Notes: generated by a model from the sequence alone, not told the origin. A DNA stretch of 32,865 bases from Deltaproteobacteria bacterium (GCA_017889845.1 JAGGAJ010000003.1:1-32865), one strand, 5' to 3'. Shown: positions 2 through 8,895, counted from the first letter of the stretch. Numbers and translations: made by a program.

Positions 2-871
<870 letters not shown>

Positions 872-894: not shown

Positions 895-933
895 GGAATG
901 GCCAGGGAGGCAGCTCCCTGGCCATTCCCTTTT
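895..933 (+). terminator. Rho-independent terminator of icd
   Basis: Perfect 15-bp stem GGAATGGCCAGGGAG (895-909) / CTCCCTGGCCATTCC (914-928), GCAG loop, followed by CTTTT. Confidence 0.85.
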
Positions 934-987
934 GTGCGCTCCACGAGGTTGCCCCCCGGTCTGGGTACAACGCAGGGTGTTTGGTGA

Positions 988-1014
988 ATATTGTTGGCAA
1001 AGTGCCAACAATAT
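988..1014. promoter_or_regulatory. Perfect AT-rich inverted repeat (operator-like or hairpin)
   Basis: ATATTGTTGGCA-AAG-TGCCAACAATAT, 12-bp arms with 3-nt spacer, lying between two convergent genes. Confidence 0.45.
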
Positions 1015-1140
1015 ATCCAGGTACCCTCCCATCGATTCAGGGGATCGCGCGCGCCTCAAACTCAGGCAGTTCCTCGCATCTGCCCTGTTATCTCGAACGG
1101 GTCATTTGCCAGGTTCAACAGACGGGCGGGCTGCCTGCGC

Positions 1141-1491
1141 TCATTGGTGGCCTGGGTTCGGCGTCGTCCCGTTGCCGTTTCCGCTGCCGGCGGCGATTGC
1201 GATCCCGATCCCGATGAGCACGGCGGTCCCGGCGGCGATCCACCAGTACGTTCCGGAGGATTTTCCCTTCGCCGGTTCCTTCTCTGCCGCTTCCCCGGCC
1301 TTGGCCGCCTGGTTCGCGTCCGTTTCCGGAATCGGCGACACGCCGGGAACGGTCTCCTTTTTCGGCCACGTTTCCCAAGTGTCGGCCGCGATAACGCGGG
1401 TAACGGATCCCAGGCTCGTGGTGAGGAAACAGGCTGCGCAAAGGATAGCGACGACGGATTTGATCGTAGTCCGGATAAGGGGTCCGCGCAT
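1141..1491 (-). CDS. Small hypothetical exported/membrane protein (116 aa), probably co-transcribed with the multiheme cytochrome
   Basis: ATG is 12 nt after the cytochrome stop, with a GGGGA SD. N-terminal signal-like hydrophobic stretch, P/E/A/K-rich linker, C-terminal TM helix YWWIAAGTAVLIGIGIAIAA and a G/N-rich tail. Confidence 0.75.
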   Translation of the reverse strand: MRGPLIRTTIKSVVAILCAACFLTTSLGSVTRVIAADTWETWPKKETVPGVSPIPETDANQAAKAGEAAEKEPAKGKSSGTYWWIAAGTAVLIGIGIAIAAGSGNGNGTTPNPGHQ

Positions 1492-1503
1492 GTTAATCCC
1501 CCG

Positions 1504-3126
1504 TCACCAATTCTCTCTCCCGTGACATCCCGTAAGGCCTCCGTCCCGTGGATTGCAGCTGTTCCCGTTGTACCTGACGGCGGGAAGGATCGTCGCCCGA
1601 GGCGATTGCTCGAAAGCGGGCGTTGCCAGGTTGTCGAAATGGCCTGACACGTTCACCTTCGACTGATCGTGGCACCGTTTGCACGTCGCCGCGCTGAGTC
1701 CGAATACGTTGTCGGCGAGGTGCAGGCTGTGCCTTCCCGAGAAGTAGCTGTTGTACTGGGTCGTGCCGGCGACGTGACAGCTCAGGCACGCGTTGGGAAC
1801 GTCGATCGCGTTGGCCGTCGCCGTCTGCCAGTCGGGCGTCGCCTGCCCGCCGTGGCAGATCACGTTCGAGCAGGTCCGGCTCGCGGCGTTGAAGTCCGCC
1901 GTGCCGGACTCCGCGTTGTAGGCCCCGAGGAAGGCGACCTCGCCCGGGGGTACCCGCAAGGCGTCCTTGCCCGGTCGCGCGTTGGCCCGGTTGTAATGCT
2001 CCAGGGTGCCGGTATCCAGACCGTTGTGACACGGGGTGCATACCCCTACCCCGGGCAGCGCACCGTGGACGGCGTGTTTGCCGGCCACGTCCGGATACGT
2101 CGCGCCGGATGGCGGATCCCCATGGCAGGAGGTGCAGTTGAGCGATGTCAGGGGCGAGCCGGTCTGGTGGCACACCGTGCAGGTCGGCCCGGTATCCGTC
2201 GCCGACCCCGATTCGAAATGGCAGGAACCGCAGCTGGACGCGAAATCGGAAGACGTCACGGAGGTATGGTTCGTCCCCGTGAACGGCACGAGATGGCTCG
2301 CGCCCCCCCTCCAGGAGAAGTTGTCGTGGACGATCGTGTGGCAGGTAAAGGTCCCGCACGACTGTGCCGTGGCGTTGTAGTTGGCGGCCGAGCCGCCCGG
2401 CTCCATGGTCTGGCCCGCCGGGCCCTCCATCTGGGCCGTATTGAGGAACTGGAAGTGGTTCCCCGCCCCCGTGGTCCCGTTCGCCATGTTGTGGCACTCG
2501 GTGCACAGGATCGCTCCGCCCACCGTGGTGGACAGGTGCGCCGCGTGGAGGCCCGAGAACGGACTGTTGTTTTCGGGGGTCTGCGCGGCCGTACCGATCT
2601 TGTGGCACTGCCGGCACCCCGCGTCCGTGTTGACGGGTATCGTCCCGGTCTGCCAGCTGGGCGCCGTCACCGCGCCGTGGCAGCTCACGTTGGCGCAGGT
2701 GAGCGCGGCGTTGTCGAACGAAGCCGCCCCGGCCTTGGCGTTGTATGTGGCGAGTATTGCCGCATCGCCCGGTGGAATCCGCAAGGCGTCCTTCCCTGGC
2801 CGCGCGTTCGCCCGGTTGTAGTGCGCCAGGCTCCCGTTGTCCAGCCCGTTGTGGCAGGTGCCGCAGACCCCTGTGACGGAGGCCAAGGCGTCGTGCGTGG
2901 CGTGACGGCCGGCGACGTCCGGGTAAACGGTCCCCGACGGCGGCCGCGCGTGGCACGAGGTGCAGTTCGCGAAGGGCAGCGCAGTTCCCGACTGGTGGCA
3001 CACTGTGCAGAGCGGCGCCGTGCCGCTTGGCGAAACGCCGGTGATCGCATGGCACGCGGAGCAATCCGAATCGAAGCCAGCCTGGTTTGTCGCGGTATGT
3101 GCCGTTCCCTGGAAGGGGACGGGATG
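1504..3126 (-). repeat. Internal tandem duplication of a ~270-aa, 8-heme-motif unit in the cytochrome (units about 2296-3126 and 1504-2295)
   Basis: Both units start HxVPFxGTxH and share CTVCHQxG, CTSCH..PPSG..YPDVAG.HA.H, CHNGLD.G.L.HYNRANARPGKDALR.PPG and C.NV.CHG. Confidence 0.9.
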
Positions 3127-4191
3127 CGTCACACCGCCGGGACCCCCGGAATGACAGGAAATTCCGTTAAAGGAGGCAGAGAAGCAGCTCGGAGCGTTGG
3201 GATCCGGCCCCGTGCCGGCGCCGTCCACCTTGTGGCAAATGGCGCACGCCACGTTCCGGTTCCCGGAATCCCGGTGGGACGACACATAGGTTGGGAACGG
3301 TTGCGGCGCCTGGTACCAGCGGATCGGGTGCGCCCTTGCCTGCGGGTGGCAGGTAGAGGTCTGACAGGAGGTCGCCGCCGATCCGCCGTTGAACTGGATC
3401 GTCCCCGGCACCCCGTGGCAATCCTGACAGGACGACAGGTTCTGCTTGGCGGTCAACCCGTGGAACTGGTTGCTGGTTGGGTTGACCCATGTGGGCCCCA
3501 GGGTGTGGGGCGCCTCCACGGGGCCGTGGCACAGGGTGTTGTTGTAACATCCGGGCGCCGTACCAGGTGGCGCAGGAGTCGGATTCAGCGACGGGTCCGG
3601 GTTCAGGTTGTTGTCCCGGTGGCACTGGGCGCACACCGGTGCGTTCGCCCCCGCAGTGCCTGTGTGGGCGTAGGTGTCCCCGGTACGCCACTGGGACGGG
3701 TGCGGCGCCGGGGCCCCATGGCACTCCTCGCAGGCAGGCGCCGTCAGGAAACCGGAGAAGTTGCTCCCGTGGCAGACCTGGCAGGAGGCGAACCCGGAGC
3801 TGCCGGGAGCCTTCTTCGCGGAGTCCCCGTGGGGTTGGGACGTCGCACCCAAAGTGTTGTCGTACCAATTGCTGACCGGGCCGTGGTGGCACCCGGCCGG
3901 ATTGCCGAAGCAGGAAGTCCCGGAGGTCCCGCCGGAGAGGTCCGCACCGTGGCATTCGGCGCAGGAACTGCTTCCGCCGTTGGCGATGTAGGTCAGTGTG
4001 GCGGACGTCGCGTGACGGCCGCCGGTGGGAACCACCACCCAATCCGGCGGGCTGGTCATACCGCCGGAGGAGTTGTCGTCCGCGCATCCGGAGATCCCTG
4101 CGAAGGCGACCAGCAGGAGGATCAGCGACAGCGTGGAAAGTCGAAGGTCCCGGAAGGAAAGGTCCCGGAAAGAATGGATGGGGACCGTCAT
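1504..4191 (-). CDS. Large lipoprotein multiheme c-type cytochrome (CxxCH / CxxxxCH type), up to 26 hemes
   Basis: AGGAGG SD, lipobox ISG-C after a hydrophobic core, and 18 CxxCH plus 8 CX4-9CH motifs by manual count. Resembles Geobacter-type CxxxxCH...CxxCH domain cytochromes. Confidence 0.93.
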   Translation of the reverse strand: MTVPIHSFRDLSFRDLRLSTLSLILLLVAFAGISGCADDNSSGGMTSPPDWVVVPTGGRHATSATLTYIANGGSSSCAECHGADLSGGTSGTSCFGNPAGCHHGPVSNWYDNTLGATSQPHGDSAKKAPGSSGFASCQVCHGSNFSGFLTAPACEECHGAPAPHPSQWRTGDTYAHTGTAGANAPVCAQCHRDNNLNPDPSLNPTPAPPGTAPGCYNNTLCHGPVEAPHTLGPTWVNPTSNQFHGLTAKQNLSSCQDCHGVPGTIQFNGGSAATSCQTSTCHPQARAHPIRWYQAPQPFPTYVSSHRDSGNRNVACAICHKVDGAGTGPDPNAPSCFSASFNGISCHSGGPGGVTHPVPFQGTAHTATNQAGFDSDCSACHAITGVSPSGTAPLCTVCHQSGTALPFANCTSCHARPPSGTVYPDVAGRHATHDALASVTGVCGTCHNGLDNGSLAHYNRANARPGKDALRIPPGDAAILATYNAKAGAASFDNAALTCANVSCHGAVTAPSWQTGTIPVNTDAGCRQCHKIGTAAQTPENNSPFSGLHAAHLSTTVGGAILCTECHNMANGTTGAGNHFQFLNTAQMEGPAGQTMEPGGSAANYNATAQSCGTFTCHTIVHDNFSWRGGASHLVPFTGTNHTSVTSSDFASSCGSCHFESGSATDTGPTCTVCHQTGSPLTSLNCTSCHGDPPSGATYPDVAGKHAVHGALPGVGVCTPCHNGLDTGTLEHYNRANARPGKDALRVPPGEVAFLGAYNAESGTADFNAASRTCSNVICHGGQATPDWQTATANAIDVPNACLSCHVAGTTQYNSYFSGRHSLHLADNVFGLSAATCKRCHDQSKVNVSGHFDNLATPAFEQSPRATILPAVRYNGNSCNPRDGGLTGCHGRENW
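4144..4173. repeat. 15-bp tandem duplication in the cytochrome signal peptide (SFRDL x2)
   Basis: aaggtcccggaagga / aaggtcccggaaaga, 14 of 15 identical. Confidence 0.8.
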
Positions 4192-4559
4192 GTCTCCTCC
4201 TGTCCTACCCGTGGTACTGCCTGCACTTCACGTCGTTCCTGTTTCCGTCGGCCCAAGCCCTAATCCCAGGAATCCATTCTGTTTACACCACATCGGTCAA
4301 GTCAAGCCCGAATTCTGTTATCGGCGACGAACCTGCTTGAAACGTAAAAAATCTCCTGATGATGGAGCAATTATTAGTCCATGGAAACACTCGCTGTGGA
4401 ATGTGGCTTTTCTCATATTGTTTCAACTGTCTTAATGAAATTAAAACGCAAATTGGTATTCGTGGCCTGAGTCGTCAGTGGTAAATCCGGTTCATTATTG
4501 TGGAAATATTTACTAATGACTGCGTTTCCAAAGGACGATATACCGGCGCCAGGGCAATG

Positions 4560-4593
4560 AAAAAGGGCTGACAACGGACCATTGCCAGCCCTT
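4560..4593 (-). terminator. Rho-independent terminator downstream of tRNA-Leu
   Basis: Minus strand AGGGCTGGCAA-TGGTCCG-TTGTCAGCCCT followed by TTTT, about 10 nt after the tRNA CCA. Confidence 0.8.
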
Positions 4594-4603
4594 CGGATTG
4601 CCT

Positions 4604-4690
4604 TGGTGCCGGAGGAGGGACTTGAACCCTCACGCCCTTGCGGGCACGGGATTTTGAGTCCCGCGCGTCTGCCAGTTCCACCACTCCGGC
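4604..4690 (-). tRNA. tRNA-Leu (anticodon CAA)
   Basis: GCCGGAG acceptor stem, D-loop TGGCAGAC, anticodon arm CGGGA-CT-CAA-AA-TCCCG, long variable arm GCCCGCAAGGGC, T-loop GTTCAAGTC, encoded CCA; 87 nt. Confidence 0.98.
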
Positions 4691-4715
4691 TTCCGGGAGT
4701 GCGCCCGGATTTTCC

Positions 4716-4745
4716 TTTATACACCGGTTCCCGATCCGTTTCCAA
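4716..4745 (-). promoter_or_regulatory. Putative sigma70 promoter for tRNA-Leu
   Basis: Minus strand TTGGAA-N18-TATAAA, ending 25 nt before tRNA position 1. Confidence 0.5.
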
Positions 4746-4846
4746 CATCCCGCCCCCGTCACTTCCGGGTCCGTCCGCATCGGGTCCCGCGTTCGGAAGC
4801 TCCACCGACACGCCGGGTATTCCCGCGCCGCAGGCGGGGGACGGAG

Positions 4847-4852
4847 TATAAT
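4847..4852 (+). promoter_or_regulatory. Consensus -10 box (TATAAT) 7 nt upstream of the cvpA ATG
   Basis: TATAAT-GTGCGCG-ATG, with no SD in between. Confidence 0.6.
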
Positions 4853-4859
4853 GTGCGCG

Positions 4860-5354
4860 ATGAATCCCGTAGACATCGCCCTCGCGGCCCTCTGCATCTG
4901 GTTCGCCGTGGCGGGTGCACTCCACGGCCTGGTCCGCCAGCTCTTCTCCATCGGGGGAATCGTGGCCGGCCACCTGCTGGGGATCCGGTATTACCCCGCG
5001 GCGCAGAAAGCCCTGCAACTTTCCTTCCCGCACTCCGAGGTGGCAGGCTATGCCGCAATCTTCCTGGTCACCTGCATCGTTGTCCGGCTGATCGGGGGGC
5101 TGGTGGAGGGGAAGGTGCGGGGGTCGAAGCTCTCCGGGATGGACCGGGGGGCGGGGCTGGTCGTCGGCCTGCTGAAGGGGGCGCTGCTCTCGGTCCTGGC
5201 GGTGTTCCTGCTCGTGGTGCTGCTTCCGAGGGACTCCCGCGTCCTGCGGGAATCGAAGGCGGCCCCCACGGCGATCGCCGCAGGCAGATGGCTGGCCGGG
5301 GTGTTTCCCCAGAAGATCGCGGAACCGTTCCGCGAGAAGGCGCCCTCCCGGTAG
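4860..5354 (+). CDS. cvpA: CvpA family (colicin V production) membrane protein
   Basis: MNPVDI start, G..HGLVRQLFS, four hydrophobic segments, DRGAGLVVGLLKG and ..ES.. motif typical of CvpA. Start reassigned from the ORF track. Confidence 0.88.
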   Translation: MNPVDIALAALCIWFAVAGALHGLVRQLFSIGGIVAGHLLGIRYYPAAQKALQLSFPHSEVAGYAAIFLVTCIVVRLIGGLVEGKVRGSKLSGMDRGAGLVVGLLKGALLSVLAVFLLVVLLPRDSRVLRESKAAPTAIAAGRWLAGVFPQKIAEPFREKAPSR

Positions 5355-5375
5355 TCCCTCCCCGCGATCCGCGCC

Positions 5376-6665
5376 TCACTCCCCCCGGATCGCCTTCCGC
5401 GACGTCTTGATGGCGCACAGGTCCGCGCACATGGTGCAGACCGCCTCGTCGACCGTGGGGAGGCTCCCGCCGCGCATGGCGCGGGCGCGCTCCGGGTCGA
5501 GGGAGAGGTCGATCTGCGCCTTCCAGTCCAGCGCGCGGCGGGCGTCCGCCATCCGGTTGTCCCGGTCCATAGCGCCTGGCAGCCCCCGGGCGATGTCGGC
5601 GGCGTGGGCGGCGATCTTTGCCGCCACCACGCCCTCGCGGACGTCCTCGACCGGCGGGAGGCGCAGATGCTCGGAGGGAGTGACGTAGCACAGGAAGTCC
5701 GCCCCGCTCCACGCCGCGATCGCTCCGCCGATGGCCGAGGTGATGTGGTCGTACCCCGGCGCGATGTCCGTGACGAGCGGACCGAGGACGTAGAACGGCG
5801 CCCCGTGGCACAGCCGCTTCTCCAGCGCGATGTTGGCCGCGATCTGGTGCATCGGCACGTGGCCGGGTCCCTCGATCATCACCTGCACGTCCCGCTCCCA
5901 GGCCCGCTCCGTGAGTTCCCCCAGCGTCATCAGTTCGTGGACCTGGGCCCGGTCGGTCGCGTCCGCCAGGCAACCGGGACGCAGCCCGTCGCCCAGGGAG
6001 ATGGTGATGTCGTATTCCCGGCAGACGTCGAGGAGCCGGTCGTACTGCTCGTAGAAGGGGTTCTCCTTCCCGTGGTACCCCATCCACTCGGCGAGGAGCG
6101 ACCCGCCGCGGCTGACGATGTCGAGCCGGCGTCCCTCCCGGACCAGGCGCCCGAGGGCGTCCCGGGTGACCCCGCAATGGACGGTCATGAAGTCGACGCC
6201 GTCCTCCGCCTGCTTCAGGATGCCCGCGAAGAAGTCGTCCGCCGACAGCTCCACCCACGACTTCCCCCGCAGGTTCCCGTCTGACGCCGCCTGGTAGACG
6301 GGAACGGTCCCGACGGGGACGGGGCACTCCGCGAGGATCGCGCGCCGGATCCCGTCGATCGGTCCCCCGGTCGAGAGGTCCATCACCGCGTCGGCCCCGG
6401 CCGAAACGGCGGCGCGCATCTTTTCGAGCTCGAGATCGAGGCTGGCGCGGTCCCTCGAGGAGCCCACGTTCGCGTTCACCTTCGCGGAGAGCCCCTCGCC
6501 GATGGCGACGGGCCGGATCTCCCGGCGTTTCCGGTTCCGCGGGATCACCGCCCTGCCGGAGGCGACGAGGTCCCGGAGCCGCTCCGGGGCCACTCCCTCG
6601 CCTTCCGCCGCCCGGACGATCTCCGGCGTCGGTTCCCCGTTCCGCGCGCGTCGCATCAGCGTCAT
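5376..6665 (-). CDS. thiC: Phosphomethylpyrimidine synthase ThiC (short type, 429 aa)
   Basis: KVNANVGSS, MDLSTGG, VGTVPVYQA, IVSRGGS, SLGDGLRPGC, EGPGH, PGYDHITSAIG, CYVTPSEHL and C-terminal CTMCADLC. GGAGG SD before ATG 6665. The upstream TPP riboswitch favours ThiC over the Bza paralogues. Confidence 0.95.
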   Translation of the reverse strand: MTLMRRARNGEPTPEIVRAAEGEGVAPERLRDLVASGRAVIPRNRKRREIRPVAIGEGLSAKVNANVGSSRDRASLDLELEKMRAAVSAGADAVMDLSTGGPIDGIRRAILAECPVPVGTVPVYQAASDGNLRGKSWVELSADDFFAGILKQAEDGVDFMTVHCGVTRDALGRLVREGRRLDIVSRGGSLLAEWMGYHGKENPFYEQYDRLLDVCREYDITISLGDGLRPGCLADATDRAQVHELMTLGELTERAWERDVQVMIEGPGHVPMHQIAANIALEKRLCHGAPFYVLGPLVTDIAPGYDHITSAIGGAIAAWSGADFLCYVTPSEHLRLPPVEDVREGVVAAKIAAHAADIARGLPGAMDRDNRMADARRALDWKAQIDLSLDPERARAMRGGSLPTVDEAVCTMCADLCAIKTSRKAIRGE

Positions 6666-6726
6666 GGCGTGCCTCCCTTTCCCCCGCATCCCTGGTGCAG
6701 CGTTCCCGGTGTGGCTGCCGGAAATG

Positions 6727-6756
6727 AAAAACCGCGCCAGGGGGACTGGCACGGTT
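6727..6756 (-). terminator. Terminator (expression platform) of the thiC TPP riboswitch
   Basis: Minus strand AACCGTGCCAG-TCCCC-CTGGCGCGGTT followed by TTT, between aptamer and thiC start. Confidence 0.8.
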
Positions 6757-6764
6757 CGAAGAGC

Positions 6765-6860
6765 ACCACGCTCCCTGCGCCGGCATTACCCGGGTCAGGT
6801 TCGACGGGTTGCCCGCCGCCACGGCGGCAGGCTCTCAGCGAAAAGCACCCCTGGCGGTTT
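6765..6860 (-). ncRNA. TPP (THI-box) riboswitch aptamer
   Basis: Minus strand AGGGGTGC...GCTGAGA...AACCCGTCGAACCTGACCCGGGTAATGCCGGCGCAGGGAG matches the TPP consensus; directly upstream of thiC. Confidence 0.95.
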
Positions 6861-6866
6861 CACTCC

Positions 6867-6896
6867 ATGATACGGCCGCCGGGAAGGCGCTGTCAA
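6867..6896 (-). promoter_or_regulatory. sigma70 promoter of the thiC leader
   Basis: TTGACA-N18-TATCAT, ending about 6 nt before the riboswitch 5' end. Confidence 0.8.
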
Positions 6897-6925
6897 ACGC
6901 CCCCGCGCACTTTCCCCCCGCGTCC

Positions 6926-6955
6926 TTTACTTGCCGGGGGGGGGTGGGGTAGACT
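6926..6955 (+). promoter_or_regulatory. Putative sigma70 promoter of the alr-mla-pur run
   Basis: TTTACT-N18-TAGACT; the spacer contains a G9 tract (6936-6944). Confidence 0.4.
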
Positions 6956-6992
6956 TCTCGAAATATACAAGGGGTTTCCACGAGGTCCCCGG

Positions 6993-8105
6993 TTGGCCCG
7001 ACCCACGGTAGCGGAGATTCGCCTCTCCGCCCTCCAGCAGAATTTCCAAGCCCTTCGCGACCTGCTGCCCCGCTCGACGGGGATCCTCGGCGTGGTCAAG
7101 GCGAACGGGTACGGCCACGGCGCCGTATCCGTAGCCCGCGCTCTCGAGGCGGCCGGGGCGAGGATGCTGGGGATCGCAACGGTGGATGAGGGCGTGGAGC
7201 TGCGCCGTGCGGGGATCCGCCTTCCCCTGGTGGTCCTGGGCGGCGTGGATCCGCCGCAGGCGGAGGAGGCGCACGCCCACGGCCTGTCCGCGGTGCTCTT
7301 CGACCGCGCGCAGACCGGCTACCTGGCCCGCGCGGCCGGGAAGGCCGGGCGGGCCTTTCCGGTGCACGTCAAGGTGGACACGGGCATGGGGCGCCTGGGT
7401 ATCCTCCCCGGGGAGGCGGCCGGCCTGCTCCGGGACCTCGCGGCGGAGCGTGGGCTCCGGCTGGAAGGATGGATGACCCACCTCTCCTCCGCGGACGGCT
7501 CCGCGGCCGCGGACCGGGAGTGCACGCGGGAGCAGTTGCGGACGTTCACCGAAATCCTCCCGGCGGTGCGCGCCGCCTTCGGGGAGAACGTCGCCGCCCA
7601 CGCCCTGAACAGTGCGGGGATCCTTTCGCACCGCGAGGAGCCGTTCGACATGGTCCGCCCCGGCATCGCCCTGTACGGCTGCTCCCCGCTGGCGGGGGAC
7701 GCGGGCGTCACCCTGCGCCCGGCGATGCGCATCGTCACGAAGATCGTTTCCCTCAAGGAGCTGCCGGACGGCCACGCCGTCAGCTACAATCGGCGGTACC
7801 GGTGCGCCGGTTCGCGGACGGTCGCCGTGGTGCCCATCGGGTACGCCGACGGGTACCGCAGGGGGCTGACCGGGCAGGCGCGGATGGCTGTGGGGGGAGG
7901 GACGGCGCCCGTGGCGGGAACGATCTGCATGGACCACACCGTGATCGACGTGACGGGGATCCCCGGGGTCGGGATCGGCACCCCGGTGGAGGTGATGGGG
8001 GAGGCCTCCCTCTCCGCCTGCGAGATGGCGCGGCTCTGCGGCACGATTCCGTACGAGATCCTCACCCAGGTGGGGGCGAGGATCCCGAGGGTCGCCGTTG
8101 ACTGA
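6993..8105 (+). CDS. alr: Alanine racemase
   Basis: VVKANGYGHGA PLP-lysine motif, HVKVDTGMGRLG, VRPGIALYG, PIGYADG, GTICMD, GTIPYE. Likely TTG start at 6993 (GAGGT SD; RPTVAEI N-terminus). Confidence 0.95.
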   Translation: MARPTVAEIRLSALQQNFQALRDLLPRSTGILGVVKANGYGHGAVSVARALEAAGARMLGIATVDEGVELRRAGIRLPLVVLGGVDPPQAEEAHAHGLSAVLFDRAQTGYLARAAGKAGRAFPVHVKVDTGMGRLGILPGEAAGLLRDLAAERGLRLEGWMTHLSSADGSAAADRECTREQLRTFTEILPAVRAAFGENVAAHALNSAGILSHREEPFDMVRPGIALYGCSPLAGDAGVTLRPAMRIVTKIVSLKELPDGHAVSYNRRYRCAGSRTVAVVPIGYADGYRRGLTGQARMAVGGGTAPVAGTICMDHTVIDVTGIPGVGIGTPVEVMGEASLSACEMARLCGTIPYEILTQVGARIPRVAVD

Positions 8106-8895
8106 ACAGAAACGCCGGAACGGCGCAGCCCTCGCCGCCGAGCGCCTCGGCGAGCGGGTCTACGCCATGGTGCAGGAGCTGGGGGCGATCTTCACGCTCT
8201 TCCTGCAGTTCCTGTCATGGATGCCGCGGCCCCCCTCCGAGATCCGCAACATCCTCAAGCAGATGGAAGAGGTGGGGGTCCGGTCGATGCCGGTGGTCCT
8301 GGTGACCGCCACGTTCACCGGCATGGTCCTCGCGCTCCAGAGCTACTCGGGATTCCAGCGCTTCCAGGCGACCAGCTTCGTGGGTTCCGTGGTCGCCCTC
8401 TCCATCACCCGCGAGCTGGGGCCGGTGTTCGCGGGGCTGATGGTCTCCGGGCGCGTGGGGGCGGCGATGGCCGCCGAGCTGGGGACGATGAAGGTCACCG
8501 AGCAGATCGACGCCCTGGTGACCCTTGCCACCAACCCCGTGAAGTACCTCGTGGTCCCGCGCGTGGTGGCCGCCACCCTCGTCCTCCCCGTGCTGGTCGT
8601 CTTCGCGGATCTCGTGGGGATCCTCGGCGGCTACTTCGTGTCGGTCTACCTGCTGGGTTCCAATCCGTACGTGTACGTCGCGAAGACGTACCAGTACCTG
8701 GAGTTCAAGGACATCTACACCGGCCTGGTCAAGGCGTCGGTCTTCGGCATGCTGATCGCCCTCATCTCCTGCCACCACGGCTTCGTCGCGGAGGGGGGGG
8801 CGGAGGGGGTCGGAAGGGCCACCACGAGGGCGGTGGTCGCCTCCTCGATGATGGTGCTCATCTCGGACTACTTCATGACTTCGTTCATGTTCTGA
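8098..8895 (+). CDS. mlaE: MlaE family ABC transporter permease
   Basis: RELGPVFAGLMVSGRVGAAMAAELGTMKVTEQIDAL and GGAEGVGRATTRAVV. Confidence 0.95.
   Translation: MTEQKRRNGAALAAERLGERVYAMVQELGAIFTLFLQFLSWMPRPPSEIRNILKQMEEVGVRSMPVVLVTATFTGMVLALQSYSGFQRFQATSFVGSVVALSITRELGPVFAGLMVSGRVGAAMAAELGTMKVTEQIDALVTLATNPVKYLVVPRVVAATLVLPVLVVFADLVGILGGYFVSVYLLGSNPYVYVAKTYQYLEFKDIYTGLVKASVFGMLIALISCHHGFVAEGGAEGVGRATTRAVVASSMMVLISDYFMTSFMF

Follow-up and report, generated by a model that had tools for sequence, protein, structure and literature searches.

How many haems does a cytochrome carry when nearly a third of its candidate attachment sites depart from the canonical CxxCH motif? The question is raised by a gene on the minus strand of a 32,865-nucleotide stretch of DNA from a Deltaproteobacteria bacterium (GCA_017889845.1 JAGGAJ010000003.1:1-32865), hereafter the window, which corresponds to contig C75 in an assembly of 1.98 Mb and 264 contigs whose completeness is rated at 92%. 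The gene encodes P0001, a multihaem c-type cytochrome lipoprotein in which CxxCH motifs are interspersed with C-Xn-CH motifs having longer spacers between the two Cys (X3, X4 and so on below, X2 being the canonical spacing). An earlier note on this DNA had proposed that the longer motifs sit in haem positions, which would make 26 haems and not 18. We find that P0001 very probably carries 26 haems and is a lipoprotein cytochrome of TIGR01904/class III type. The comparisons reported below establish its motif anatomy, how well this is conserved, the family to which it belongs and a genome with System II alone; the haem occupancy of the 26 sites, their bis-His ligation, the location of the protein and its physiological role are what we infer.

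Motifs were counted by a script pairing every 'CH' with the preceding Cys, run as a regular expression on the P0001 translation. Twenty-six motifs were returned: 18 X2, four X4 (CQTSTCH, CANVSCH, CGTFTCH and CSNVICH), one X5 (CYNNTLCH), one X6 (CFGNPAGCH) and two X9 (CFSASFNGISCH at slot 10, CNPRDGGLTGCH at slot 26). The mechanical count is therefore the same as the 18 canonical and eight extended motifs given earlier. These motifs take up 52 of the 53 Cys of the protein, and the sole Cys outside them is C36, in a lipobox-like ISGC, as the earlier note had it. His residues also total 53, with 26 placed after a motif Cys and 27 elsewhere; one of the latter, H6, belongs to the signal peptide, which leaves 26 non-motif His in the mature chain, the number previously announced. 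With 26 sites for 859 mature residues, the density is about 33 residues per haem. The under-call of some 30% predicted for CxxCH scans is plain arithmetic (8/26, or 31%).

As a chance control, the whole P0001 sequence was shuffled 2000 times. Shuffled sequences had a mean of 0.17 CxxCH (maximum 2), against 18 observed, and a mean of 0.89 C-X3-9-CH (maximum 6), against 8 observed. In a second control, which keeps the 18 CxxCH as blocks, the mean number of extended motifs fell to 0.17 (maximum 3). The motif pattern of P0001 is not due to chance.

The 26 sites are ordered in an N-terminal decahaem domain and two eight-haem units, A and B (coordinates in Table 1). The decahaem domain is composed of five dihaem modules, each made of a CxxCH followed, 12-23 residues further on, by a C-Xn-CH; the second-slot spacers are successively X6, X2 (CEECH), X5, X4 and X9, in agreement with the earlier reading. 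Units A and B, compared as residues 351-632 against 628-895, are 50% identical over 258 aa (E 6e-77). As had also been described, their final slots differ: slot 18 of unit A is X4, and slot 26 of unit B is X9.

Conservation of these slots was analysed in two sets of homologues. The first is a 29-row alignment of sequences 48-81% identical to P0001, picked for a length of 850-910 aa and exactly 26 motifs, and leaving out the identical P0002 and sequences like P0040 (24 motifs). The second comprises 117 homologues aligned over at least 240 residues of the N-terminal domain, with no filter on motif number. In the first set, all 26 slots were kept in 29/29 homologues, and motif Cys and His were all invariant except C879, whose column moves with spacer length. 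In the second set, odd slots were X2 in every sequence having the slot. Slot 2 was X6 in 64 sequences, X4 in 46, X9 in 5, X8 in 1 and X2 in 1; slot 4 was X2 in 89, X5 in 17, X4 in 5, X3 in 3 and X6 in 1; slot 6 was X5 in 116 and X4 in 1. Slot 8 alternates with a canonical CxxCH among relatives (X4 55, X2 45, X3 5, gap 11, other 1), and slot 10 also varied in length (X9 86, X14 12, X10 2, X11 1, X4 1, X2 1, gap 14). Past the decahaem domain, in the 29 homologues, slots 15 and 23 were X4 in 29/29 each, slot 18 was X4 in 20 and X3 in 9, and slot 26 was X9 in 16, X8 in 3 and X3 in 10. Slots 6, 15 and 23 hence hold a fixed length, slots 18 and 26 vary without ever being X2, and interchange with X2 was observed at slots 2, 4, 8 and 10. 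Relatives carry a canonical CxxCH exactly where P0001 has X4, X6 or X9, and the canonical slot 4 of P0001 (CEECH) is replaced by X5 or X6 in relatives, one of them a paralogue with CMNNGALCH encoded on contig C145 of this genome.

The non-motif His are conserved as well: 25 of the 26 present in the mature chain are invariant in the 29-row alignment, and the remaining one, H60, is a His in 116/117 rows of the larger alignment. At the sequence level, the extended sites show what is expected of haem attachment, namely a Cys pair and a His that keep their place in the chain and for which homologues can have a CxxCH instead. Because C...CH and its His are conserved while spacers are variable, because CxxCH substitutes for the extended motifs, and because the non-motif His are conserved, we read the extended motifs as haem sites. 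The earlier note had suggested aligning homologues, and had staked its reading on the conservation of these residues: in the 29 and 117 homologues, C...CH is fixed, spacer length varies at given slots, and motif Cys and His are conserved. Its proposal that extended pairs occupy haem positions, giving 26 sites and not 18, is strongly supported by this comparison.

The pattern of the eight-haem unit was found again in 219 units of 133 proteins. The fifth slot of the unit was X4 in 216/216 complete units. Its final slot was X3 in 81, X9 in 56, X4 in 49, X7 in 21, X8 in 6, X6 in 2 and X10 in 1; an X2 at this place was found in 0/216 units. Of the 121 matches listed, 112 leave no more than two Cys outside C-Xn-CH motifs, and the number of motifs per protein takes discrete values, 18, 22, 26, 34, 38 and 42. 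Such totals fit a ten-haem head followed by whole or half eight-haem units, which points to growth of the family by these steps. Separately, one frame of Candidatus (Ca.) Geothrix skivensis was seen to hold 52 motifs in 1806 aa.

To which family does P0001 belong? The NCBIfam model TIGR01904 (CxxxxCH/CxxCH domain c-type cytochrome) scored 44.7 bits, for a cut-off of 27, over two stretches at residues ~487-552 and 762-824, the latter being the best; in a six-frame search of the genome, the model matched 2542-2745 (34.3 bits) and 1720-1911 (33.7 bits). In both stretches a CX4CH is followed by a CxxCH: C499-X4-C504-H then C526-X2-C529-H, and C774-X4-C779-H then C802-X2-C805-H. The X4 at slots 15 and 23 are thus the signature of TIGR01904. 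Three Pfam models also passed their cut-offs, PF14522 Cytochrome_C7 (54.5 bits for 24.8), PF14537 Cytochrom_c3_2 (49.8 for 25) and PF02085 Cytochrom_CIII (29.4 for 22.9), and a feature search in a protein atlas returned just c7, c3 and PF09698 families. Judging from these profile matches, P0001 is a member of the already annotated, uncharacterised TIGR01904 family, built of class III (c3/c7-like) modules.

The likeness to TIGR01904/PF09698 (GSu_C4xC__C2xCH, the Pfam model of this domain), a family first defined on Geobacter sulfurreducens, consists of the two copies in which a CX4CH then a CxxCH are accompanied by two His. However, the domain covers 4 of the 26 sites of P0001, and the dihaem modules with X5, X6 and X9, as well as the variable last slots of the units, fall outside it. 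With class III c3/c7 cytochromes and their polymers (16-haem HmcA, Geobacter c7-domain polymers), P0001 shares, besides the three Pfam matches, a short chain with little secondary structure, many sites of bis-His type and the alternation of a canonical and a longer motif. Haems II and IV of cytochrome c3 are bound by CX4CH. P0001 differs from this class by spacers exceeding X4, by its lipid anchor, and by the lack of a match to a solved structure. In a relative of 1832 aa, P0212, the same dihaem module is repeated along the chain, both slots being CxxCH, and the match to Pfam Cytochrom_CIII has an E of 3e-42, which ties the dihaem module to the c3 family. Some homologues, P0001 not being among them, match the MtrC/MtrF domain II/IV model PF22113 barely above cut-off.

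The family is large. In a large protein database, 387 homologues were found at E<=1e-3, several of them named 'CxxxxCH/CxxCH domain-containing protein' or 'predicted CxxxxCH...CXXCH cytochrome family protein' (NCBI, JGI). A search of 1.84 billion cluster representatives with the N-terminal domain as query gave 541 clusters (50% identity) at E<=1e-3, of which 326 reach E<=1e-10 and 97 reach E<=1e-30. The 145 new representatives listed contain 5428 Cys, 95.3% of them within C-Xn-CH motifs, and X3-X15 make up 26.5% of the motifs. The long spacers are stereotyped: the 260 X5 motifs are mostly CFNNTLCH or CFNSTLCH, X6 is typically CFGNPAGCH, X9 is CFSASFNG..CH or CNP..GGLTGCH (68 cases), and X14 is CFSASFTN.DG....CH (55 cases).

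The C145 paralogue mentioned above is a further member of the family in this genome. It lies on the plus strand from ~2369 to the contig end at 3623, by which it is cut, and has a lipoprotein-like N-terminus followed by ten strictly alternating motifs (CAECH, CFTPASGCH, CQICH, CMNNGALCH, CAQCH, CYNNTLCH, CGVCH, CLNNAACH, CATCH and CFNSTLCH). An ORF (open reading frame) with five CxxCH is found directly upstream of it.

Taken together, we hold it moderately probable that P0001 is an exported, System II-matured lipoprotein wire of 26 haems, the extended sites included, acting in extracellular or periplasmic electron transfer. The protein would be exported and lipidated at C36, and a System II synthase (ResB/CcsA) would load it with haem in the periplasm. 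Each of the 26 C-Xn-CH sites, the eight X4, X5, X6 and X9 among them, would hold haem through two thioether bonds, with the His after each motif as proximal ligand and the conserved non-motif His providing most or all distal ligands. Five c3-like dihaem modules and two eight-haem units would then form a continuous, closely packed haem chain at ~33 residues per haem, and the whole would serve as a lipid-anchored electron conduit or store, for example in the reduction of Fe(III) or humic substances.

A number of observations weigh against one or another part of this reading. Pfam PF09698 scored 18.4, under its cut-off of 21.7. Haem-free AlphaFold2 (AF2) modelling of the full-length protein with the 29-row alignment gave a pLDDT (predicted local distance difference test) of 33.3 and a predicted template modelling score (pTM) of 0.20; the N-terminal domain alone (118 rows, also haem-free) reached a pLDDT of 68.5 and a pTM of 0.56. 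With this N-terminal model, Foldseek found no match at E<=1e-3 in the PDB (best HmcA, 2cvc, E 3.2), and among 48,161 chains compared by VIA-align no cytochrome came first, the best Z, 2.6, being that of a transposase. Nor was a significant hit obtained in PDB sequence searches with the whole of P0001, the 29-row profile or the N-terminal domain, the best cytochrome being a small tetrahaem cytochrome, 1m1p, at E 0.43. Because the models are haem-free, these fold results say nothing for or against haem sites. A new fold, which the empty searches might have suggested, is likewise an unsupported reading of models that lack haem. As to location, no porin, periplasmic cytochrome or secretion gene adjoins the gene (the search for porins covered this locus), P0001 has just one [ST]P[ST] motif, and an outer-surface position with a role in extracellular electron transfer is suggested by the family and the organism alone. 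Weak expression evidence came from one soil RNA library (X20), with seven short contigs at 90-99% identity; carried-over DNA or a related organism could be their source, and they are a hint at most. Finally, for ligation, non-motif His are distributed 9/9/8 over the three regions for 10/8/8 haems; M569 (CTECHNM; codon at 2485-2487, minus strand), one of just five Met in P0001, is invariant in 29/29 homologues; and the agreement between 26 His and 26 haems is arithmetic on totals, from which bis-His ligation would be inferred.

The first alternative keeps the haem count and changes the location: P0001 would face the periplasm, tethered either in the outer membrane's inner leaflet or in the cytoplasmic membrane, and be a wire spanning the periplasm or an electron store (capacitor), not a surface terminal reductase. 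The ...AFAGISGC of the signal peptide, a lipobox-like stretch, ends at C36, unchanged in 29/29 aligned homologues, and the residue that follows the putatively lipidated Cys is an Ala and not an Asp, which speaks against this alternative. In Geobacter and Shewanella, multihaem cytochromes that are lipoproteins lie exposed at the surface, which also argues for the outer surface, and P0001 resembles OmcB and MtrC/OmcA as a lipobox multihaem cytochrome in a cytochrome-rich genome. It differs from them by the lack of a neighbouring porin or periplasmic partner and by a much higher haem density, and no similarity to solved MtrC-type structures was found by PDB sequence search or Foldseek. No Pcc/Mtr porin-cytochrome cluster is present at the locus, where the small ORF described below is the only gene conserved in related loci; together with the single [ST]P[ST] motif, this speaks for the periplasm. 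So does the series of modular lengths from 18 to 42 haems, which resemble Geobacter c7-domain polymers, and these are periplasmic. The observations are compatible with either location; we consider the periplasm-facing variant rather unlikely, if worth keeping in mind.

The surface reading draws on the nature of the host. The closest related loci belong to a Ca. Deferrimicrobium sp. (74% identity), to Ca. Deferrimicrobiaceae and to a 'Deltaproteobacteria bacterium'; farther ones (35-53%) belong to Holophagaceae and to Geothrix, among them the isolates G. rubra, G. campi, G. paludis and G. oryzisoli. In one related locus (L048), thiC (84% identity) is found upstream and the small ORF downstream, as in the window. 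The host is probably a member of Ca. Deferrimicrobiota (MBNT15), on the basis of these sequence relationships. In its accessible part, the paper on the MBNT15 phylum proposes dissimilatory iron reduction by means of many multihaem cytochromes, and counts CxxCH only (PMC9386147). About 21 ORFs of the present genome hold at least four CxxCH. DNA near-identical to the gene was detected in metagenomes of wetlands and fresh waters, 4 studies contributing 8 runs with at least 77% of sampled words.

The second alternative concerns maturation. CcmE was found in 0/5 genomes, namely this one and four that bear the family; its absence from 5/5 speaks against the idea that Geothrix uses System I (CcmF). 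ResB and CcsA genes are present in this genome, which is therefore assigned to System II. Contig C165 holds a canonical ResB+CcsA pair, whose CcsA scores 293 bits for a TIGR03144 cut-off of 187.6. A second CcsA, on contig C237 (L002, ~897-2461, plus strand), is 31% identical to the first and scores 130 bits, below the cut-off; a short ResB-like ORF comes after it, an order reversed compared to the canonical resB-ccsA of C165. On contig C42 (L003, bases 2-187, plus strand), a 62-aa C-terminal fragment of CcsA, 89% identical to that of C165, reaches the contig edge and could be a recent duplicate or come from a second strain in the bin. The search for ccsA/ccmF paralogues advised earlier was thus productive in part: a divergent second CcsA exists on C237, but it is not universal in the family, and CcmE is absent.

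Could this divergent pair be a dedicated synthase, needed for haem attachment at the extended sites? A precedent exists, since the CX15CH of MccA is matured by a dedicated System II lyase, CcsA1, and the comparison with the octahaem sulfite reductases MccA/SirA (CX15CH or CX17CH) holds for the extended motif, for System II and for the extra divergent CcsA. The coexistence of a canonical pair and of a second, divergent CcsA with a ResB-like ORF is in favour of this possibility, as is an 83% identical orthologue of the C237 CcsA in one Deferrimicrobiaceae genome carrying the family. Against it, the C237 pair is not beside the cytochrome gene, and the window contains no haem lyase gene next to it. 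Four family-bearing Holophagaceae genomes (three Geothrix and one Holophaga sp.) have just 31% matches to the C237 CcsA. In two of them, G. campi (G002) and Ca. G. skivensis (G004), PF01578 is matched just once, their completeness not being given, and CcmE is absent; they encode family members with X3, X4, X5, X7, X9 or X14 motifs. A CcsA-type lyase co-located or co-distributed with the cytochrome was therefore not found, and P0001 differs from MccA/SirA by this lack of an adjoining lyase gene, by the absence of sequence similarity, and by a CcsA paralogue that family-bearing Geothrix do not have. Because Geothrix genomes with a single PF01578 match encode members with extended motifs, a dedicated lyase is not a general need of the family, and we consider it improbable that the eight sites of P0001 depend on one. 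The broader proposition, a large superfamily (the 541 clusters) with stereotyped long-spacer motifs at fixed alternating slots, matured in Geothrix by one ordinary System II synthase, is put forward as a tentative one, which could well prove wrong.

A third alternative would make of P0001 a redox enzyme instead of a pure wire, one haem with an open or non-His distal position being the catalytic site. The uneven distribution of His and the invariance of M569 are in its favour, and because of them at least one haem is perhaps not bis-His: M569 is a candidate non-His axial ligand, and at least one haem may take another distal ligand or borrow one across modules. Weak, sub-threshold matches to the NrfB and cytochrome c552 families of NCBIfam (E 0.009-0.03) go in the same direction, but they are far under the cut-offs (16 bits for 167, and 13 for 692). 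Moreover, neither a CxxCK nor another known catalytic signature was found in P0001, and the total of non-motif His equals the number of haems. A catalytic role is very unlikely.

Are extended motifs with such spacers already in print? The part consulted of a 2024 survey gives CXCK, CX2CK, CX3CH, CX4CH, CX11CH, CX15CH and CX17CH (PMC11492766). Another report, in its available portion, describes how Cx2CH gives way to Cx3CH at a homologous haem of MtrA (10.1101/2025.05.29.656830). For OmcZ of Geobacter sulfurreducens (CX14CH), the passages seen report a solved structure with a 14-residue loop between two haem-binding Cys, a precedent that a long loop between Cys suits a normal c-type haem (PMC9473688). 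X14 variants are present at slot 10 in 12/117 homologues of P0001. OmcZ differs from P0001 in that it has one extended site in eight, forms filaments and has no detected sequence relationship to it; in the lipoprotein P0001, ~30% of the sites are extended, at fixed alternating slots. No relevant paper was found for CX5CH to CX9CH haem motifs in the full texts searched, a corpus with subscription journals and bracket notations outside it, so that the earlier remark on the rarity of X5-X9 descriptions holds to the extent that X5, X6 and X9 were not met in the searched literature. No functional study of the TIGR01904/PF09698 family was found there either, the papers merely listing its name. The principle of the extended motif is thus already in print, and X5, X6 and X9 at fixed slots, like the family itself, appear undescribed within the searchable literature.

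It is most improbable that P0001 is an 18-haem protein whose eight extended Cys pairs are structural disulfides or stay unmodified and haem-free: haem attachment at X5, X6 and X9 was indeed not found in the searched literature, the survey just cited, as far as seen, lists as CXnCH only CX3CH, CX4CH, CX11CH, CX15CH and CX17CH (PMC11492766), and native OmcZ with its CX14CH could not be expressed in Shewanella according to the part seen of a 2026 preprint (10.64898/2026.07.18.739370), but the His after the second Cys, for which a disulfide has no need, is invariant at all eight extended slots, relatives have a canonical CxxCH at the same slots (45/117 at slot 8, 89/117 at slot 4), the number of conserved non-motif His fits 26 and not 18, and the X4 sites define a curated haem-domain family, TIGR01904.

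If one ordinary System II synthase does mature the family in Geothrix, CcsBA-type synthases would need no dedicated lyase to accept Cys spacers ranging from 2 to at least 14 residues, and the conserved loops would be functional elements, engaged in inter-module contacts or in acceptor binding as proposed for the OmcZ loop, and not neutral insertions. Haem number sets the length of a conduit, its redox capacity and its mass; at about 0.6 kDa per c-type haem, the 26-haem and 18-haem forms would be about 5 kDa apart. In metagenomics, haem counts commonly serve as a flag for extracellular electron transfer. A CxxCH scan misses ~30% of the motifs of the family (968/3254 among the matches listed, and the 26.5% already given for the 145 representatives). 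A counting pipeline which, in the section seen, uses CXnCH with n = 2-5 (PMC12545173) would still miss X6, X9 and X14 sites; another, from what is accessible of it, uses a very wide CXnCH (10.64898/2026.05.27.727921). Among Holophagaceae, and among Deferrimicrobiota from wetlands and fresh waters, the family is common, and as cultured Geothrix carry it, haem attachment at X5-X14 and the substrate range of System II are directly testable. The homologue of a cultured Geothrix isolate has 18 motifs, and X3, X4, X5 and X14 sites are found at loci L034, L035, L038 and L040. P0001 is a variant within known biology, and it shows that counts based on CxxCH alone mislead for a widespread family.

Table 1. 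Features of the cytochrome locus (positions in the window)
Feature	Position	Strand	Details	Basis
Gene for multihaem c-type cytochrome lipoprotein P0001	1504..4191	-	895 aa, stop codon included	ORF list and translation
Signal peptide with lipobox	4084..4191	-	Residues 1-36, ...LLLVAFAGISGC36; C36, putative lipidated Cys	Sequence reading
N-terminal decahaem domain	3127..4083	-	Residues 37-355, five dihaem modules	Motif count and alignment
Slot 2, CFGNPAGCH	3886..3912	-	X6	Regular expression
Slot 6, CYNNTLCH	3526..3549	-	X5	Regular expression
Slot 8, CQTSTCH	3346..3366	-	X4	Regular expression
Slot 10, CFSASFNGISCH	3151..3186	-	X9	Regular expression
Eight-haem unit A	2296..3126	-	Residues 356-632; spacers X2,X2,X2,X2,X4,X2,X2,X4
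Slot 15, CANVSCH	2677..2697	-	X4, opening motif of a TIGR01904 domain	Regular expression
Slot 18, CGTFTCH	2338..2358	-	X4, final slot of unit A	Regular expression
Eight-haem unit B	1507..2295	-	Residues 633-895; spacers X2,X2,X2,X2,X4,X2,X2,X9
Slot 23, CSNVICH	1852..1872	-	X4, opening motif of second TIGR01904 domain	Regular expression
Slot 26, CNPRDGGLTGCH	1522..1557	-	X9, final slot of unit B	Regular expression
Small ORF	1141..1491	-	116 aa, starts 13 bases after the cytochrome stop	ORF list
tRNA-Leu (CAA)	4604-4690	-	Between the cytochrome gene and cvpA

The neighbours of the cytochrome gene are icd, for a monomeric isocitrate dehydrogenase (convergent), the small ORF, a tRNA-Leu, cvpA, thiC, alr (alanine racemase) and mlaEFD. 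The product of the small ORF has a signal-like N-terminus, a middle part rich in Lys, Glu and Ala, and a C-terminal hydrophobic helix (...YWWIAAGTAVLIGIGIAIAAG...), and it matched no Pfam or NCBIfam family. By tblastn, the small ORF was found directly downstream of the cytochrome gene in 8/70 related loci, at 39-78% identity, and it is probably co-transcribed with this gene. Comparison of the other ORFs of the window with the 70 related loci revealed no further conserved flanking gene. One promoter-like site was seen at 4305-4276 on the minus strand, for 0.5 expected by chance, and it carries no evidential weight.

Elsewhere in the genome, three consecutive cytochrome ORFs with 9-11 CxxCH lie on contig C7 (plus strand, ~3196-8400), one of which has a long multi-helix membrane C-terminus and presumably resembles inner-membrane quinol-linked cytochromes. 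Contig C76 encodes, on its minus strand, a membrane-anchored cytochrome with 12 motifs, one X4 and one X3 among them. Lastly, in the interval that separates the small ORF from the convergent icd, positions 895-928 of the window form a hairpin with a perfect 15-bp stem (10 G-C pairs) and a T-rich tail, which is likely a terminator, possibly acting in both directions.

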